Shown here piece after piece: positions 23,340 to 33,294 of a DNA stretch of 64,000 nt (within the stretch, counting starts at the first letter, position 1; each line of letters starts with the position of its first letter). The translations under genes were made by a program, and so were the position numbers. Origin of the DNA: a virus. Lineage: Duplodnaviria; Caudoviricetes. The DNA lies in IMG/VR virus record IMGVR_UViG_2802428829_000001, positions 33,105 through 97,104 of that record; one strand, 5' to 3'. The notes under the pieces were generated by a model. The model saw only the letters and a program-made list of their open reading frames with translations. It had not been told where the DNA came from and searched no databases.

Positions 23340-23642
23340 CCACCGTGCGCACCTCCACGGCCGCCGAAGTCGTCGCCGCCCGGCACCAGAACCGCGACGA
23401 CACGGCCGAACCCCCTGCCGAGAACGCCGACGACCGGCGGCCGCGCACCAGCCGTCACGCCTGACCAGCGCTCCCGGGGCCGCAGCCACACCGCTGCGGC
23501 CCCACACGGCCCTCACAGCCCCACAGCGGCCAAGGCTCACCCTCCTCCATGCGGCGGTCGCAAGGCCGACACAGGCCCCGCCAGCCCCGCCCCGACTACC
23601 GAACTGACACCCCTCCACCTCACCGAGAAAGGGCCCTGCCCC

Positions 23643-24593
23643 ATGGTCAGCCCCGGCCAGATCGCACTGAGCCTGCCCGGCCTTGACGATGCCGGCCCCG
23701 ACCTCGCCTCGTACCGGTGGCTGCTGGCGAACATCAGCGGCGGCAAGGACTCGATGGCGATGCTCCACGAACTCGTCCGCCAGGCCGACGCCGCCGGCGT
23801 CCCCCGCGACCGCATCGTCTGCGTGCACGCCGACCTCGGCCGCGCCGAGTGGGAAGGCACCCGCGAACTGGCCGAAGAACACGCCGCCGCGTACGGCCTG
23901 CGGTTCGAGGTCGTGGCACGCATCGGCCTCGACCTGATCGACCGCATCGCCGAGCGCGGCATGTTCCCTGACGCATCGAACCGCTGGTGCACGAGCGACT
24001 TCAAGCGAGGCCCCGTACGGCGCCTGATGACCGCCCTCGTCCGCGAAGCCGAAGCCGCCGGACACCTGGGCCGGGTCCGCATCCTCAACGTGATGGGCCT
24101 GCGCGCCGACGAGTCACCGGCCCGCCGCCGACTGCGCGCCTTCTCCCACGACGGCGCCCTTACCTGCCCCTGCCCAGACTGCCTTTCCCGCCGTGCCGCG
24201 CTGGAGAGCGCCGAACGACGCGGCGTGCCCTGCCCGAAGCACAAGAAGCCCGGCCACGGCGCGTCGAACACACTGCGGCACGTCGACACCTGGCACCCCG
24301 TGCACTCGTGGTCGACCAGCGACGTGTGGGCGGCCGTCGAGCGGTCCGGCCTGCGCCCGCACCCCGCCTACGCCAACGGCATGCCCCGCCTGTCGTGTTC
24401 GTTCTGCGTTCTGGCCTCGCGGCCGGCGCTCGTGCGCGCCGCGCAGCTCCGGCCCGAACTGGCCGCCGAGTACGCCGCCATCGAGGAGCGAATCGGCCAC
24501 CGCTTCAGGAACGACGTGTCGATGGCGGAGATCATCTCCGAGGCTTCAGAGGCATCGTCCGAGGTCACAGCAATTCCCTGCTGGACGGGGTGA
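23643..24593 (+). CDS. PAPS reductase/DndC-like PP-loop Fe-S protein
   Basis: ISGGKDS, RWCTSDFK, GLRADESPARR, RLSCSFC. Confidence 0.85.
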   Translation: MVSPGQIALSLPGLDDAGPDLASYRWLLANISGGKDSMAMLHELVRQADAAGVPRDRIVCVHADLGRAEWEGTRELAEEHAAAYGLRFEVVARIGLDLIDRIAERGMFPDASNRWCTSDFKRGPVRRLMTALVREAEAAGHLGRVRILNVMGLRADESPARRRLRAFSHDGALTCPCPDCLSRRAALESAERRGVPCPKHKKPGHGASNTLRHVDTWHPVHSWSTSDVWAAVERSGLRPHPAYANGMPRLSCSFCVLASRPALVRAAQLRPELAAEYAAIEERIGHRFRNDVSMAEIISEASEASSEVTAIPCWTG

Positions 24594-24658
24594 TCACCAA
24601 TCGTGTGTATCATCCAACACGCGATCGGCCGTCCTGTGCAGCGGCGCGGCCGACGCAG

Positions 24659-24728
24659 GCGCCGGTGGTCGTAAGCAGCACGATCGCCTTCCGGGCGATA
24701 GGTCCAGGTGCAAGCCCTGGCCGGCGCT
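24659..24728 (+). tRNA. non-canonical tRNA-Gly(UCC)
   Basis: Acceptor GCGCCGG/CCGGCGC plus U73; anticodon stem ATCGC/GCGAT with loop CT-TCC-GG; 4-nt variable loop; T stem CCAGG/CCTGG with loop TGCAAGC; weak D arm with no GG; CCA not encoded directly after U73. Confidence 0.8.
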
Positions 24729-24753
24729 CTCCCACAGCCTTCCAGGGGGCGCC

Positions 24754-26118
24754 ATGTTCCACGGATCGATCCCCGCCCCCCTCCGCTCGATCATCTACGA
24801 GCACGCCGGCGCCTGGCCCGAGACCGACATCTACGTCGGCTGCTCGGGCAACTTCACCATCGAGCGCGTGCTGCACTCCCGGTTCGGCAACACGCGGCCG
24901 GTGCACGGCAACGACATCACGGCGTACTCGTGCGCGCTTGGCTGGTTCCTCGCCGGGGAGGACCTGCCGTACGAGCTGCGCGAGGAGTACGAAGACGAGC
25001 TGGGGTGGGTCGCCCCGTACCTGGAGGACCGCACCGACCGGCTCGCGACCCTGATGCTCGGCACCCGCTTCCTCCAGTACGTCGGCAAGGAAGGCACCTA
25101 CTACCGGCGGATGCTCGACGCCACCCGCGACCAGTGGCCGCGGATGCACGAGAAGACCGCGGCGAAGCTCCACGCGCTGGAGACCCGCCTCGGCAGCTTC
25201 TACGCCGGCGACGTCCTGGACTACCTCCGCGACGAGGTGCCCCCGGAGGCCCCCGTCGTGATGTTCCCGCCCTTCTACGCCAAGGACTACCAGGCCCAGT
25301 TCGCGCCGATCGACGCCGCGTTCTCCTGGCCCGAGCCGCAGTTCGGCGAGCTGACCGAGGACGGCAAGGAAGAGATCATCCACCAGGTGCAGGACCGGCC
25401 GCACTGGGTGCTCGGCCTGCACATCGAACGCCCGGAGCTGCGCCACCGGCTCGCCGGCGTCGTGCAGACCGCGAACCGCGGCCTGCCGATCTACGTGTAC
25501 GCCGCCGCCGGGCCCCGCCGCATCGTCCGCCCCCGGCAACCCATCGAGCCGATCCCCATGCAGAAGATCGGCGTGGGCGAGGACCTCGGCGACAAGATGA
25601 CCCTCCACGTCCTGACAGGCGGCCAGTTCGCTGGCGTCCGTTCCCAGTTCATGTCCAAGAGCATCAAGCCCGGCAGTCCGTTGCTCGCCTGCGGCGTCGC
25701 CGTCGACGGGAAGCTGATCGGCTCGTTCGCGTACCTCCCGCCGAAGTTCGATCCGGCGACCGCCTACCTCATGAGCGACTTCCCGGTGTCGTGGACGAAG
25801 TACCGGCGCCTGGCCAAGCTCATCGTCATGGCCGCCTCGACCACCGAAGCGCAGCTACTGCTCCAGCGCTCCCTCTCGAAGCGGCTCACCGGCTGGGCCA
25901 CCACCGCGTTCACCGACCGGCCCAACAGCGCGAAGTACGGCCGCGGCATCCCCGGCGTGAAGCTTCAGAAGCGCACCGAGGCGAGCAGCAAGGACCCGGG
26001 CGACGGCATCCACCGCTACCAGCTCCAGTACGGCGGCCCCCTCGGCGGCTACACCCTCGCGGGCGCCCTGGACCTGTGGAAGCGGAAGCACGGCAGCGAC
26101 ATGAAGAAGGACAGCTGA
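24754..26118 (+). CDS. degenerate adenine-MTase fold fused to a GNAT (Mom-like) domain; putative DNA hypermodification enzyme
   Basis: N-terminal YVGCSGNF/GND/GDV/MFPPFY; C-terminal GVAVDGKLIG..YLMSDF..YRRLAKL..TTAFT..NSAKY GNAT-like pattern. Confidence 0.65.
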   Translation: MFHGSIPAPLRSIIYEHAGAWPETDIYVGCSGNFTIERVLHSRFGNTRPVHGNDITAYSCALGWFLAGEDLPYELREEYEDELGWVAPYLEDRTDRLATLMLGTRFLQYVGKEGTYYRRMLDATRDQWPRMHEKTAAKLHALETRLGSFYAGDVLDYLRDEVPPEAPVVMFPPFYAKDYQAQFAPIDAAFSWPEPQFGELTEDGKEEIIHQVQDRPHWVLGLHIERPELRHRLAGVVQTANRGLPIYVYAAAGPRRIVRPRQPIEPIPMQKIGVGEDLGDKMTLHVLTGGQFAGVRSQFMSKSIKPGSPLLACGVAVDGKLIGSFAYLPPKFDPATAYLMSDFPVSWTKYRRLAKLIVMAASTTEAQLLLQRSLSKRLTGWATTAFTDRPNSAKYGRGIPGVKLQKRTEASSKDPGDGIHRYQLQYGGPLGGYTLAGALDLWKRKHGSDMKKDS

Positions 26119-27074
26119 TGAGCGACACCGCCCTGCCCCCGCCCGCACAGACGATCCGGCCCCGCCTCGTCCGCCGAGACCCCCGCGCCCTGACCCCCCT
26201 CGACATGAACGCCCGTTACATGCGCAAGGAGGAGTGGGACAGGCTCGTCGACAACGTGAAGGCGGACGGCTGCCTCACCTCCGTACCGCTCATCTACGGC
26301 GCCGGGGAGTACGAAGAGGGCCGCGAGCTGATCCTCTCGGGGAACCACCGCACCGCCGCGGCCGTGGAGGTCGGACTCGCCGAGATCGACTGCATGCTGA
26401 TCGACGACCCGCAGCAGAAAGACGAACTCCTCGCCCGGCAGCTCTCGCACAACTCGATCGCCGGCCAGGACGACCCCGCCACCCTGCGGGCCCTGTACGA
26501 CCAGATCGAGGACGTCGACTGGCGCGCCTACTCGGGCCTCGACGACGACCAGCTCAACCTGCTCGCCGAGGTCTCGCCCGAGGGCCTGTCGGAGGCGAAT
26601 CTCGACTTCGCCACCGTGAGCCTGATCTTCCTGCCCAACGAGCTGGAAGCCGCACGGCAGGCATTTGCCGACGCCCGGATGGGTCAGAACGAGAGCTGGC
26701 TCGCCGCACGCGCCGACTACGACCAGACCTTGGACACCCTCGCCTCCACCCACGCCGCGCACAAGGTCGGCAACGTCGCCACCGCGCTGCACGCCATCCT
26801 CAGCATCGTTGAGAGCCACCTGACCGACCTCCAGGCCGGCTACCAGTCCCCGGACGGCGAGCCCCTGCACACCGGGCACGTCGGGCTGGAGACCGTCCTC
26901 GGCGCCCGCACCCTGCCCGCCCCCGCGGCCGTCACCCTCAACAAGGCCATAGCCGCGGCCGAAGGCAGAGGCGAGATCGAGCCCGGGCAGGGCTGGCGCC
27001 TCCTGGAACGCCTCGCCGGCGAATACCTCTCCGGCCCCAACCACACCCCCGTAGAACCCACGCCCACGTCATGA
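26118..27074 (+). CDS. ParB N-terminal (ParB/Srx) domain protein
   Basis: NARYM..LVDNVKADG..ILSGNHR..LSHNSIAGQDD; coupled to the upstream gene. Confidence 0.8.
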   Translation: MSDTALPPPAQTIRPRLVRRDPRALTPLDMNARYMRKEEWDRLVDNVKADGCLTSVPLIYGAGEYEEGRELILSGNHRTAAAVEVGLAEIDCMLIDDPQQKDELLARQLSHNSIAGQDDPATLRALYDQIEDVDWRAYSGLDDDQLNLLAEVSPEGLSEANLDFATVSLIFLPNELEAARQAFADARMGQNESWLAARADYDQTLDTLASTHAAHKVGNVATALHAILSIVESHLTDLQAGYQSPDGEPLHTGHVGLETVLGARTLPAPAAVTLNKAIAAAEGRGEIEPGQGWRLLERLAGEYLSGPNHTPVEPTPTS

Positions 27075-27700
27075 GCGCCCCCACGTCCATCAGGCTCGAC
27101 CCCGCGCTACCCCCGTGGGACCAGCAGCCGAGCGAAACCGCCAAGAAGCACGGCCAATTCGTCACCTACCGGGACCTTGGGCGCGCCCGCACGCTACCCA
27201 GGGCTGCGGAACTGCTACAGCGGCATCCGGTGACGATCCGGAAGATCAGCGCCGAGTTCCGGTGGCTGGAGCGCGCCGAGGCGTACGACCGGCATCTGGA
27301 CCAGCTGTACGAGGTGATGTGGCTGGAGGAGCGCCGCAGGGCAGCCGAAGCCGACGCGAAGATCCTCGGCGCTGCCATCGGCAAGGTCGCGCAACGGCTG
27401 CCGTCGCTGAACGCTCAGGAGATGTCGGCCGGCGACGTGATCCGGCTGATGGACGTTGCCTTGCGGCACCGCCGGGCGCTGTTCGGCGACCCCACGGAGA
27501 CGATCGTCGTCACGAGCGAATCGCGGTCGCCGCTCGCCGGGAAGCTGGAGGAGTTCGCCGGGCTGCCCGCCGACCAGCGAAACGCCCGGCTGGCGGAGCT
27601 GGCCGCGACCGTCACCCGTCGCATACGGGCCGTCGAAGGCGGCGATGACGACGAGGAGGAATACCCCGGGCACGACGCCGAGGACGCCGAGAAGGAGTGA
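27071..27700 (+). CDS. terminase small subunit (putative)
   Basis: PWDQQPSET..F..YRDLG..R.L..W.ERAEAYD; precedes TerL. Confidence 0.75.
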   Translation: MSAPTSIRLDPALPPWDQQPSETAKKHGQFVTYRDLGRARTLPRAAELLQRHPVTIRKISAEFRWLERAEAYDRHLDQLYEVMWLEERRRAAEADAKILGAAIGKVAQRLPSLNAQEMSAGDVIRLMDVALRHRRALFGDPTETIVVTSESRSPLAGKLEEFAGLPADQRNARLAELAATVTRRIRAVEGGDDDEEEYPGHDAEDAEKE

Positions 27701-29271
27701 GCGCGCGCGCCGTTGCCGACGAGCTGGCCTACCTCGACGACGTCGCGGTGTACCAGCAGCTCACCGCCGCCGAGCAGGCCGTGAGCCGGGACCTGCTGCG
27801 CGACCCCGTTACGCTCGCCCGCGGCCTGGACGGCACGTTCCGGATGCGCCCGCACCTGCGGGTGATCGGCGACGCTCTGGCGGACGTTGAGCGCGGCGAG
27901 TACGACCGGCTGCTGATCCTCACCCCGCCCCAGGTGGGGAAGTCGACGACGGTCGCGGAATGGTTCCCGTTCTGGTGGTTGGCGCGGCACAACCGCGACC
28001 GGGTCGCGGTCACCTCGTACTCCGACGACCTCGCGTTGAAGCGCGGGAAAACGATCCGGTCGTACGTGGAGCAGCACGGCGCCGAGTACGAGCTGCTGAT
28101 GAAGGCCGGGTCCGGGGCGATGCAGGACTGGGAGATCACTCAGGGCGGCGGCGTGCGATCCGTGTCCGTCGGCAGAGGGCTGACCGGCCACTCCGTGAAC
28201 CTGCTGATCGTCGACGACCCGCACAAGGACCGAGCGGACGCCGAGTCCGAGGCCAGCCGCCGCGCCCTACACGACTGGTACAGCTCGACCGCGCTGAAGC
28301 GCCTCCAACCGGACCGCAACGCCGTCGTGAGCATCATGACCCGCTGGCACCCGGACGACTTCGCCGGGCGCCGCATCGCCGACGAAGGCCGCCTGGAAGA
28401 CGGCGGCCGGTGGCGGGTCATCCACCTGCCGGCGGTCGCCGACCCGAAGTTCGGGCCCGATCCCCTCGGCCGCGCCCCGGGCGAACCACTGCCGCATCCG
28501 AAGATCGCCACCCGGGACCGGCGGGCGCTCAAGGCATGGTGGGCGGACATGAAGCGCACGTCGATCGTTCGGGACTGGCACGCGCTCGCCCAGGGCGACC
28601 CGCAGCCGGCAGAGGGCGCGTTGGTGTCGGAGGAGCTGCTGCGGCTCATCCGGGACACGTCCACCCGGGTCGAGCCACAGAAGGTCGCTGTTGCCATCGA
28701 CCCGTCCGGCGGCGGCCGGGACACGGCGGGTGTCGTCGGCGGCTTCCTCGGCGAAGACGGCCGCGTGTGGGTCACCCACGACCGCTCCGGTGTGATGTCG
28801 TCGGCCGACTGGTCCACCGCCGCGTGCCGGCTCGCGCACGAAACCGAAGCGGCGATCGTCTACGTCGAGACGAACTACGGCGGCGACATGTGCTCCCTCG
28901 CCATCCGTACCTCGTGGGAAGCGCTGCAGGCGGCCGAGGAGATCCCGGCGAAGGCGCTGCCGCCGATGGTGCAGCCCGTCCGCGCGAAGCAGGGCAAGCT
29001 GTTGCGAGCCGAGCCTGTGGCGCAGCAGATGGTGCAGGACAAGGTCAGGTTGCGCGGCGTGTTCACCGACCTCGAACGGGAGTGGTCCACCTGGGCGTCC
29101 ACCGACCCGGACTCCCCGGGCCGGATCGACGCATCGACGATCCTCGTGTACGGCCTGATCCCCGAAGCGAACCAAGGGGCCGTTGTCCACGCGCCGCTGC
29201 CGCGGGCGCCGACGTCGGGCAGCGGGCAGAGAGCTTCGGCCGCTTCGGCGTACGGCCGCCGCATCACTTGA
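27697..29271 (+). CDS. terminase large subunit
   Basis: PPQVGKST Walker A, LLIVDDPHK Walker B, AIDPS, VETNYGG, SPGRIDA. Confidence 0.95.
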   Translation: MSARAVADELAYLDDVAVYQQLTAAEQAVSRDLLRDPVTLARGLDGTFRMRPHLRVIGDALADVERGEYDRLLILTPPQVGKSTTVAEWFPFWWLARHNRDRVAVTSYSDDLALKRGKTIRSYVEQHGAEYELLMKAGSGAMQDWEITQGGGVRSVSVGRGLTGHSVNLLIVDDPHKDRADAESEASRRALHDWYSSTALKRLQPDRNAVVSIMTRWHPDDFAGRRIADEGRLEDGGRWRVIHLPAVADPKFGPDPLGRAPGEPLPHPKIATRDRRALKAWWADMKRTSIVRDWHALAQGDPQPAEGALVSEELLRLIRDTSTRVEPQKVAVAIDPSGGGRDTAGVVGGFLGEDGRVWVTHDRSGVMSSADWSTAACRLAHETEAAIVYVETNYGGDMCSLAIRTSWEALQAAEEIPAKALPPMVQPVRAKQGKLLRAEPVAQQMVQDKVRLRGVFTDLEREWSTWASTDPDSPGRIDASTILVYGLIPEANQGAVVHAPLPRAPTSGSGQRASAASAYGRRIT

Positions 29272-31819: not shown

Positions 31820-33294
31820 TGCCCACCTTGGAGGCCGCCGAGGAGGACGTCGCCGACGCCGTCGCCCGTGCGCTCGCCGACACCGCGGCGGAGTTCGGCC
31901 GTGCTCTCGACGGCGCCACCGAGCTGGTTGCCGCCCGCTTCTCGGTGGGCCGGATCGCCGGAATGTGGGCGCGCCGTGTGCCCGCCCTCGTCCGCCGCCT
32001 CCTCGGCGTCGCCGAGACCGCGGCGCAGCAGACCGCTTCGGATGTCGACGCCGAGTTGCCCGACGGCTGGACGGACCTCCCCGGCCGCCACGAGGACGGC
32101 CGCCGTCTGCCTGATGGTCTCGGTCAGTACGTCGAGTCAACCGAGGCTCTGCTGCGCGCTGTCGGTGATCGCCTCGCTCAGGTCGCTGTCCGTGAGCTTG
32201 CCGCTGGCGTCGACCAGGGCGAGACCGTCGACCAGCTCCGCGACCGCCTCGCCGCCGCGTTCGCCGCCGACGAGGACGGCTCTCAGCTTGGCCCCGGCCG
32301 TGCCCACCGCATCGCCCAGACCGAGGCGACACGGGCGTGGAACATGGCCACGCTCGCTGCGGCCCGCGCACTGACGAGCCGGGGCCGGCCGTTGGTCAAG
32401 CAGTGGATCAGCCGCGGAGACGAGCGGGTGCGTCCTGCACACCGGCAGGCCAACGGGCAGCTCCGCTTCATCAGCGAGCCGTTCAGCGTCGCCGACGTGT
32501 CCCTGGATGTCCCTGGCGACCCCAGTGCACCCCCTGCGCTCACCATCGGCTGCCGGTGCCGTGTTGCTGTCGCACCCTCTCTGAATTCCGCAGCCGGCGA
32601 CGTGAATTCGCCACGCTACGCCATGAGACCCGGGAAAATATTCGTGAATCCGAAGACCACAGCGTACGGTAAATATGCGGGAGCCAAAGCGGCCTTTCAC
32701 GGAACGCAAGGGCGTCCCAGCTATCGCAAATACCATCCCAAGGGCGGAAACAGAGGCATCTCCCGCCACGAGAACGGCGGAATGATCGGAAGTGATCGCT
32801 TCACCGCAGAGGAGCACTCTGCGGTGCTGGAAAGCTACACCGTCAACGGCTACAACGACATGAACAACTGGCTTCGCTTCCGCAGTGACCCTGAGGACTC
32901 CTCCAGCGAGGAAGTGCAACGTCAGGTATCGGCCCTCAACGACCTCATCTCCATCCAGGAACCCACGACTTCCGAGGAGACCCTGTTCCGAGGTATGCGT
33001 GGACACGTCCTCGACTTCGAAGTGGGTGACGAGTTCCACGACAGAGGATTCGTCTCCACAAGCACTGAAGAGAGAGTCGGTCGGATGATGGTCGGTAAGA
33101 GAGGCGGCACCTTCTTCCGGATCAATCTTCCCGCGGGCGCTCAGAGAGTTGATGTGGATTCCCTGGGTGGGTGGGACCGCGAAGGCGAATGGATCCTTCC
33201 GCCAGGCACCAAGTATCGCGTCACGAAGAAAGGGCAACTGGACGACCCGACCCGGCCGGCCGTCCTTTACGAGGTGGAGGTCATCAATGCCTGA
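31819..33294 (+). CDS. MuF minor head protein fused to a VIP2/C3-type ADP-ribosyltransferase
   Basis: IAQTEA..KQWISRGDERVRPAH..GCRC (MuF); YT..Y..MN..LR, LFRG, FVSTS, EGEWILP (R-S-E ART). Confidence 0.85.
   Translation: MPTLEAAEEDVADAVARALADTAAEFGRALDGATELVAARFSVGRIAGMWARRVPALVRRLLGVAETAAQQTASDVDAELPDGWTDLPGRHEDGRRLPDGLGQYVESTEALLRAVGDRLAQVAVRELAAGVDQGETVDQLRDRLAAAFAADEDGSQLGPGRAHRIAQTEATRAWNMATLAAARALTSRGRPLVKQWISRGDERVRPAHRQANGQLRFISEPFSVADVSLDVPGDPSAPPALTIGCRCRVAVAPSLNSAAGDVNSPRYAMRPGKIFVNPKTTAYGKYAGAKAAFHGTQGRPSYRKYHPKGGNRGISRHENGGMIGSDRFTAEEHSAVLESYTVNGYNDMNNWLRFRSDPEDSSSEEVQRQVSALNDLISIQEPTTSEETLFRGMRGHVLDFEVGDEFHDRGFVSTSTEERVGRMMVGKRGGTFFRINLPAGAQRVDVDSLGGWDREGEWILPPGTKYRVTKKGQLDDPTRPAVLYEVEVINA

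Follow-up and report, generated by a model that had tools for sequence, protein, structure and literature searches.

Why should a tailed phage carry a single glycine tRNA gene directly ahead of a putative DNA-modifying enzyme and of the genes for DNA packaging? We addressed this question for a stretch of 64,000 nucleotides (nt), hereafter the window, which comprises positions 33,105 to 97,104 (one strand) of the IMG/VR record IMGVR_UViG_2802428829_000001 (Caudoviricetes). In this window, a divergent tRNA-Gly(UCC) gene lies in a prophage next to a gene for a protein in which a Dam-like domain is fused to a GNAT-fold domain. A preliminary description of the locus had proposed that the phage supplies a glycine-charged tRNA to the fusion enzyme for the glycylation of its own DNA. 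Our analysis confirmed the observation itself, whereas the interpretation is partly supported overall. The tRNA gene, the enzyme gene, and a gene for a ParB-like protein form a recurrent unit. By analogy with phage Mu Mom, its function would be the Gly-tRNA-dependent modification of DNA adenine, a reading to which we assign a probability of roughly 0.6.

To assess the linkage of the tRNA to the enzyme gene, we analyzed 154 loci with a homologue of the fusion enzyme (33-93% protein identity, ~1.0 Mb of DNA in total) from actinophages, actinobacterial prophages, and gut and other metagenomes. A tRNA-Gly-like gene was considered near the enzyme gene when it lay on the same strand and at most 700 nt upstream. 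This was the case in 125 of the 154 loci; another 7 contained such a gene elsewhere in the locus, and 22 contained none. Since the tRNA-Gly adjoins the gene or is at least present in so many loci, its functional association with the Dam-like/GNAT gene is supported. ARAGORN called 115 tRNA-Gly genes in this DNA, with the anticodons UCC (78), ACC (19), CCC (17), and GCC (1), next to 3 other tRNAs and 3 further calls that were left unassigned. The median distance between tRNA and gene was 35 to 118 nt across four sets of loci. Among the IMG/VR loci, ARAGORN placed a tRNA-Gly just upstream of the gene in 16 of 20, and most of the 80 metagenome loci (33-72% identity, many from human gut) had one 0-150 nt upstream. 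Loci with the linkage include gut metagenome contigs at 33-40% protein identity, and in a lower-GC contig with a 33%-identical homologue the element was found 445 nt upstream. The enzyme family is large, as an exhaustive profile-free search of a homologue library clustered at 50% identity retrieved 799 cluster representatives at E <= 1e-3, of which 263 remained at E <= 1e-30.

The linkage extends to isolated phages. Enzyme homologues are encoded by Mycobacterium phages (Jeon, Taptic, and others; 44% identity) and by the Gordonia phages Jollymon, Soos, Sting, and Clawz (50-55% identity). The homologue of Jeon is immediately preceded by an annotated tRNA-Gly(tcc), and in the Gordonia phages the unannotated gap upstream of the homologue holds a cloverleaf (GCGCGAC...GUCGCGC-U-CCA). 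The preliminary description had expected standard finders to miss the window tRNA. This does not hold, since it was called by ARAGORN (tRNA-Gly(tcc), 24659-24729, the only tRNA in the window) and by Rfam (RF00005, 24659-24728; 39.3 bits at a gathering score of 29, E of 2e-6). Only some relatives escape detection, namely the Gordonia copies with both programs and the Jeon copy with Rfam. In Jollymon and Clawz, the tRNA-Gly-like gene (L001:3821-3896 and L002:3823-3898, respectively) is unannotated in GenBank and has an 8-nt T loop (UAACCACU / UAACCAAU); the Jollymon copy combines C33 with the anticodon CCC.

The fold of the single window sequence is unexceptional (z of -1.65), and the cloverleaf thus rests on covariation in relatives. 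In their alignment, 95% of the stem cells are paired, and 11 pairs in three stems have changed on both sides. None of 500 shuffles was as good, and shifted controls reached 36-44% paired cells. The expectation of a covarying Gly cloverleaf upstream of homologues was therefore borne out. With a covariance model of our own, R1, built from 20 elements, 23 of 24 sources and 47 of 49 loci of actinobacterial genomes were found to contain the element; the window tRNA scored 84 bits.

Some loci deviate in layout. The tRNA-Gly is located downstream of the ParB-like gene in L134 (3220-3295) and L137 (5265-5338) and on the opposite strand in L173, 2778-2853(-), whereas L140, L182, and L183 contain tandem tRNA-Gly pairs with different anticodons, which in L182 and L183 differ in the first base. 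A role of the tRNA as an integration site of the phage was also examined and rejected, since the gene is full length, adjoins the terminase genes, and occupies unrelated genome positions in isolated Mycobacterium and Gordonia phages.

The module and its surroundings in the window are arranged as follows:

23643-24593, plus strand: PAPS-reductase/DndC-like PP-loop protein (PF01507, phrog_424), the directly upstream neighbour
24608-24613, plus strand: TATCAT, a -10-like hexamer read in the sequence 45 nt upstream of the tRNA; putative function
24659-24728, plus strand: divergent tRNA-Gly(UCC) without encoded CCA (ARAGORN, Rfam, R1, covariation)
24754-26118, plus strand: Dam-like/GNAT fusion protein of 454 amino acids (PF22555 and PF22559, AlphaFold2 model, fold searches)
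25264-25278, plus strand: FPPFY at the site of methyltransferase motif IV, (D/N/S)PP(Y/F) (translation)
26118-27074, plus strand: ParB-N-like protein with an SGNHR motif (PHROG ParB-like families)
27071-27700, plus strand: terS, terminase small subunit (phrog_6299, 4.2e-22)
27697-29271, plus strand: terL, terminase large subunit (phrog_38, 3.4e-83; PF03237)

The 3' end of the tRNA is separated by 25 nt from the ATG of the fusion gene (24754), as had been described. The fusion gene, the ParB-like gene, terS, and terL overlap successively by 1-4 nt; the stop codon of the fusion gene overlaps the start of the ParB-like gene as TGATG, and the junction of the ParB-like gene with terS is an ATGA overlap. 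The fusion gene is translationally coupled to the ParB-like gene, terS, and terL, in agreement with the preliminary description. The latter had also noted a -10-like box. The hexamer exists, but a sigma-70 consensus promoter scan of 23400-27400 returned no site, either at TATCAT or between the tRNA and the gene, so that TATCAT only resembles a -10 box. The PAPS-reductase/DndC-like gene, which gave weak NCBIfam matches to DndC, TtcA, and TilS, accompanies the module in only 20 of the 154 loci, all of them actinobacterial, and is hence accessory. In view of the neighbour tallies (tRNA in 125 loci plus the 7 others, ParB-like gene in 147, PAPS-reductase gene in 20), tRNA-Gly, fusion enzyme, and ParB-like protein make up the core unit, which is encoded immediately before the terminase genes. 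In the 97,104-base record as a whole, the tRNA-Gly(tcc) is the sole tRNA called by ARAGORN.

What kind of tRNA is this? The window copy contains the complete glycyl-tRNA synthetase (GlyRS) identity set, namely G1-C72, C2-G71, G3-C70, U73, C35, and C36, which are the elements required for glycylation (PMC7826273). Its anticodon loop reads CUUCCGG (U33, U34, C35, C36, G37), its D loop is devoid of GG, and its T arm has G53-U54-G55-C56, that is, GUGC in place of GUUC. The T stem, CCAGG/CCUGG, contains the pairs C49-G65, C50-G64, and A51-U63. CCA is not encoded, and the acceptor stem is followed by UCUCC. In the five genes between 23643 and 29271, GGA accounts for 3 of 141 glycine codons (2%), and the demand for the anticodon of this tRNA in the adjacent genes is small.

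We determined which positions are maintained in 95 distinct elements of the family, 90 of which were used for the anticodon loop. The identity elements claimed for the window are nearly invariant: G1C2G3 was found in 93 of 95 elements, C70G71C72 in 94, and U73 in all, and C35 and C36 were present in all 90 anticodon loops. Positions concerned with decoding drift, in contrast. U33 was lost in 17 of 90 elements (retained in 73), position 34 was U in 62, A in 15, C in 12, and G in 1, position 37 was a pyrimidine in 26 of 90, and 5 elements had an anticodon loop that was not 7 nt long. U33 and a purine at position 37 are near-universal in elongator tRNAs, and we know of no bacterial tRNA-Gly that uses A34. 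CCA is encoded in 58 of 95 relatives. This conservation pattern fits a tRNA that would be charged by GlyRS but released from decoding.

The absence of GG, the GUGC, and the A51-U63 pair, which had been emphasized initially, are present in the window tRNA but are not family-wide, since 45 of the 95 elements have GG in the D loop and the T loop starts with TTC in 69, with TGC in 17, and with another sequence in 9. They may furthermore be inherited in the actinophage copies rather than adaptive, because they are also present in a tRNA-Gly(UCC) of a Streptomyces chromosome. The chromosome of Streptomyces kronopolitis, which contains a related prophage, has 70 tRNAs, including two tRNA-Gly(UCC), one canonical and one odd. 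The odd one adjoins a tRNA-Gly(GCC) and has the D loop AGUAGUA without GG, UGC in the T loop, and A51-U63. Streptomyces peptidoglycan has a glycine bridge, and judged by its sequence the odd copy could be a chromosomal non-proteinogenic tRNA-Gly. The two genes are located at L093:9-81 (G001:C1:3946298-3946369) and L089:258-328 (G001:C1:2823130-2823200). The drift at positions 33, 34, and 37 is consequently the stronger argument for a putative non-decoding role.

A C32-G38 pair was also considered as a mark of non-decoding tRNAs. It covaries (Watson-Crick in 86 of 90 elements, with four pair types) and was nevertheless dropped, as it can equally be drawn in ordinary tRNA-Gly (host sequences; PMC7826273). 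R1 additionally detected a degenerate tRNA-Gly-like element at L074:1501-1574 (G001:C1:1392812-1392885; 56.5 bits, no ARAGORN call), which has a 6-nt loop with GCC and an encoded CCA and is followed by a strong hairpin. It adjoins no Dam-like/GNAT gene, and its sole Pfam-matched neighbour is RibD_C.

The enzyme is a single chain with matches to PF22555 (DAM-like-phage1, 1.7e-102) and PF22559 (GNAT-phage-like, 9e-55), which together with the FPPFY motif of the translation corroborate the fusion of a Dam-like methyltransferase to a GNAT-like domain described earlier. Residues 2-272 form the Dam-like pseudo-methyltransferase and residues 280-447 the GNAT-fold domain. The AlphaFold2 model was of high confidence (predicted local distance difference test score of 93.1, predicted template modelling score of 0.85). 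A structure search with this model identified the N-terminal domain as a class I methyltransferase fold (Z of 11-12.6). The Dam enzymes 2dpm (DpnM; Z of 11.7 over 192 residues), 1q0s (T4 Dam; 11.4 over 187), and 2ore (EcoDam; 11.1 over 193) aligned over 187-193 residues, as opposed to ~140-165 for most other methyltransferases listed, and the fold includes the inserted recognition domain of the Dam type. No match to Pfam D12-class methyltransferases was obtained for this domain even at an E of 10, and a comparison of the family profile with solved structures gave chance matches only, to CaMKII via a PPF stretch. In 48 diverse relatives, G32 (motif I), D54 (motif II), and P172 are invariant, and P173 is nearly so. 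The consensus of motif IV reads SFPPF and thus contains no catalytic D/N/S; judged by its sequence, the domain probably does not methylate.

In several relatives, inteins are inserted directly after FPPF. They comprise ~240 residues with a LAGLIDADG-type motif, start with Cys, and end with HN followed by S/T. Such a position is typical of a site that is functionally critical. The carriers are P0004 and P0009, also P0025 and P0075, and probably L019, L068, and L070; P0125 carries, instead of such an intein, an HNH domain within the N-terminal domain.

The C-terminal domain has a GNAT fold, with a Foldseek probability of 1.0 to many GNATs. In an independent search, Mom (8bv8_B) ranked third among 48,161 chains (Z of 10.5 over 142 residues, rmsd of 3.6). 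With ~170 residues, the domain has no long insertion in the predicted structure. Canonical acetyl-CoA-dependent GNATs possess a Q/RxxGxG/A pyrophosphate-binding loop after strand beta4. The corresponding segment is PVSWTKYRRLAKL in the window and PTKYKRLAKL in the family consensus; neither contains GxG/A, and the fusion enzyme is hence devoid of the acetyl-CoA loop of canonical GNATs.

The third component, encoded at 26118-27074, matched PHROG ParB-like families at 1e-7 to 3e-9. No Pfam match was obtained for the window protein at an E of 0.1, and PF02195 matched 8 of 16 orthologues. S74-G75-N76-H77-R78 is invariant in the family, and a ParB-like homologue is encoded directly downstream of the enzyme gene in 147 of the 154 loci.

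How might these components act together? The recurrence of the three-part unit in ~130 of the 154 loci suggests that the tRNA delivers glycine to phage DNA rather than to ribosomes. Host GlyRS would charge the private tRNA, which would serve mainly or only as a glycine donor, as its decoding parts are no longer constrained, and which may evade elongation factor Tu (EF-Tu). The Dam-like domain, in which the catalytic D/N/S of motif IV is no longer present and the glycine of motif I and the aspartate of motif II are preserved, would recognize DNA and flip out the target adenine. The GNAT domain would then transfer glycine from the 3' end of the tRNA to the flipped base. A precedent for this step is Mom, which transfers glycine from Gly-tRNAGly to the N6 of adenine in double-stranded DNA, the adduct rearranging to N6-carbamoylmethyl-adenine (PMC13219725); the donor that the preliminary description had given for Mom is thereby verified. 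ParB-like proteins activate a phage DNA-base dioxygenase (PMC13229309), and on the model of such ParB-dependent thymine dioxygenases the ParB-like partner would load or activate the enzyme on DNA around packaging. The modified DNA would resist host restriction. A more detailed scenario is conceivable, although we consider it doubtful. Across a widespread group of phages, a tRNA-Gly would have been withdrawn from translation and retained as a GlyRS-charged cofactor reserved for the composite enzyme. The former S-adenosylmethionine pocket of the dead Dam domain would hold the glycyl-adenosine end beside the flipped adenine, glycine transfer would be catalyzed by the GNAT domain, and the enzyme would reach DNA at packaging by means of a ParB-like clamp, resulting in sequence-specific DNA aminoacylation with a dedicated RNA cofactor whose gene adjoins that of the enzyme.

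Several observations weigh against Gly-tRNA-dependent DNA modification. The structural score of Mom is tied with those of two generic acetyltransferases at a Z of 11. At the sequence level, the GNAT domain is not a member of the Mom family: it did not match PF25680 up to an E of 10 (Mu Mom scored 253 bits), and hhalign of the two family profiles gave a probability of 3.3% over 21 columns. From the early suggestion of a Mom/GNAT domain, the GNAT fold and a place for Mom among the tied top structural matches thus stand, but not a family relationship. The top structural matches of the N-terminal domain include the tRNA and rRNA methyltransferases TrmN, Trm14, Erm, and KsgA. Many gut copies of the tRNA have a canonical elbow and U33, so that some of them may still decode. 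Finally, of the 22 loci without a tRNA several are cut short, but the subgroup L198-L202 truly has none; the tRNA is therefore dispensable for some family members, as it is for Mom. A sensitive model search with filters off in 11 tRNA-less loci gave only one weak match, on the opposite strand (E of 0.014), and no tRNA-Gly-like element was found in L020, L028, and L065.

The resemblance of the N-terminal domain to RNA methyltransferases makes an RNA acceptor conceivable, and the alternative that fares best, albeit unlikely, is that the tRNA is the target, partner RNA, or scaffold of the enzyme, which would modify or acylate the tRNA or its aminoacyl group in the manner of TacT and ItaT. The presence of TmcA, a tRNA acetyltransferase, among the Foldseek matches agrees with this idea, and the tight linkage suits any direct interaction between tRNA and enzyme. 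However, the constant ParB-like partner and the site ahead of the terminase genes point to DNA, the Dam family provides the longest alignments of the N-terminal domain, the acetyl-CoA loop that TacT-type toxins need is absent, and the strictly kept GlyRS identity set is a requirement of a donor role.

Somewhat less probable still is a transfer of glycine from the charged tRNA to an acceptor other than DNA, be it a protein (ParB-like protein, terminase, or capsid), a nucleotide, or a cell-wall precursor. Such acceptors have precedents in the tRNA-dependent GNAT-fold enzymes FemXAB (PMC7826273) and L/F-transferase, which act on peptidoglycan precursors or proteins. Yet the fused Dam-like domain retains the PP(F/Y) base-binding motif, for which a protein or cell-wall substrate offers no obvious use. 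Moreover, Mycobacterium and Gordonia, whose cell walls are without glycine bridges, are among the hosts of the module.

The two remaining explanations suit the conservation pattern of the tRNA family poorly. We consider it very unlikely that the element acts mainly in cis, as a tRNA-shaped signal for processing by RNase P/Z or for stabilization that sets the mRNA 5' end of the packaging operon and needs no charging. Its position 25 nt before the start codon, the short median gaps in the four sets, and the lack of a separate detectable promoter between tRNA and gene are in line with such a signal; however, processing requires only the acceptor/T minihelix and would not fix C35, C36, and U73 in 90-95 copies, and in the variant loci L134, L137, and L173 the tRNA follows the ParB-like gene or is encoded on the opposite strand. 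That the element is an ordinary phage tRNA supplementing the translation of glycine codons, its place beside the enzyme gene being inherited by chance, is hardly credible: phages often carry tRNAs, the window copy passes ARAGORN and Rfam, and numerous gut copies show a canonical T loop together with D-loop GG, but 115 of the 118 ARAGORN calls with an assigned amino acid are Gly in hosts of very different codon usage, the first anticodon base has drifted to A in 15 of 90 elements, U33 is lost in 17 of 90, and GGA makes up only 2% of the glycine codons in the adjacent genes.

As to the sequence composition of the whole 97-kb record, CTAG is strongly depleted (21 observed versus 52.6 expected, ratio of 0.40), and GATC occurs at the expected frequency (ratio of 1.01).

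Mom has until now been the single documented enzyme that modifies DNA with the aid of a charged tRNA, which it takes from the host. If Gly-tRNA-dependent DNA modification is indeed the function of the present module, such modification would be common, as the enzyme family comprises ~800 clusters at 50% identity and ranges from soil actinophages to phages of the human gut. It would have arisen on the GNAT fold at least twice. It would also define a new class of tRNA genes in which selection acts on charging instead of decoding, which would change the reading of single tRNA genes in phage genomes, explain tRNA-Gly genes with the anticodon ACC or without U33, and imply a DNA adduct and an anti-restriction route that are both new. 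A literature search returned no paper on a Dam-like/GNAT fusion together with a tRNA-Gly, although its coverage was incomplete and an earlier description is possible.

The components of the module resemble several known systems. With Dam, DpnM, and T4 Dam (2ore, 2dpm, and 1q0s), the phage enzyme shares the fold, the domain order, the glycine of motif I, and the aspartate of motif II, whereas it differs in motif IV, which is FPPF/Y without the catalytic D/N/S, and in the absence of a D12-class Pfam match. The ParB-dependent phage thymine dioxygenases (PMC13229309) provide a parallel of another kind: there too a ParB-like gene is the constant partner of a base-modifying enzyme, putative in our case, close to the terminase genes, but enzyme class and chemistry are different.

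The non-proteogenic tRNAGly species of staphylococci, which feed FmhB, FemA, and FemB, have TGC or TGT in place of TTC and the weak T-stem pairs A49-U65, U50-A64, and A51-U63, and they bind EF-Tu poorly (PMC7826273). The likeness to these tRNAs that had been noted initially holds in part. Both have the anticodon UCC, keep the GlyRS elements, and deviate in parts that serve EF-Tu and the ribosome, and the window copy shares the D loop devoid of GG, UGC in the T loop, and A51-U63; the last is, however, only one of the three weak pairs, C49-G65 and C50-G64 being present instead. Within the phage family, TGC is limited to 17 of 95 elements, and the family-wide deviations are those at positions 33, 34, and 37. 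The staphylococcal tRNAs supply a GNAT-fold transferase, as proposed for the phage tRNA, but the latter adjoins its enzyme gene, and its presumed acceptor is DNA and not peptidoglycan.

The closest functional parallel proposed here is Mu Mom, likewise a phage enzyme with a GNAT fold, as illustrated by the structural match over 142 residues. Both are tied to tRNA-Gly, biochemically in the case of Mom and by gene linkage in the present case. The essential residues of Mom are R111, S124, D149, and R151, in addition to an HTH (helix-turn-helix)-like insertion (PMC13219725), and profile comparisons gave nothing usable for a residue alignment of the GNAT domain to Mom. Whereas Mom carries this insertion, the GNAT domain of the phage enzyme is fused to a Dam-like domain. 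All host tRNA-Gly isoacceptors work with Mom, which is controlled by Com, and no phage tRNA is mentioned for it (PMC13219725); the present module, in contrast, comprises a tRNA gene of its own as well as a constant ParB-like partner. What would be new with respect to tRNA-dependent modification of DNA by a GNAT is the architecture of the enzyme and the dedicated tRNA gene.

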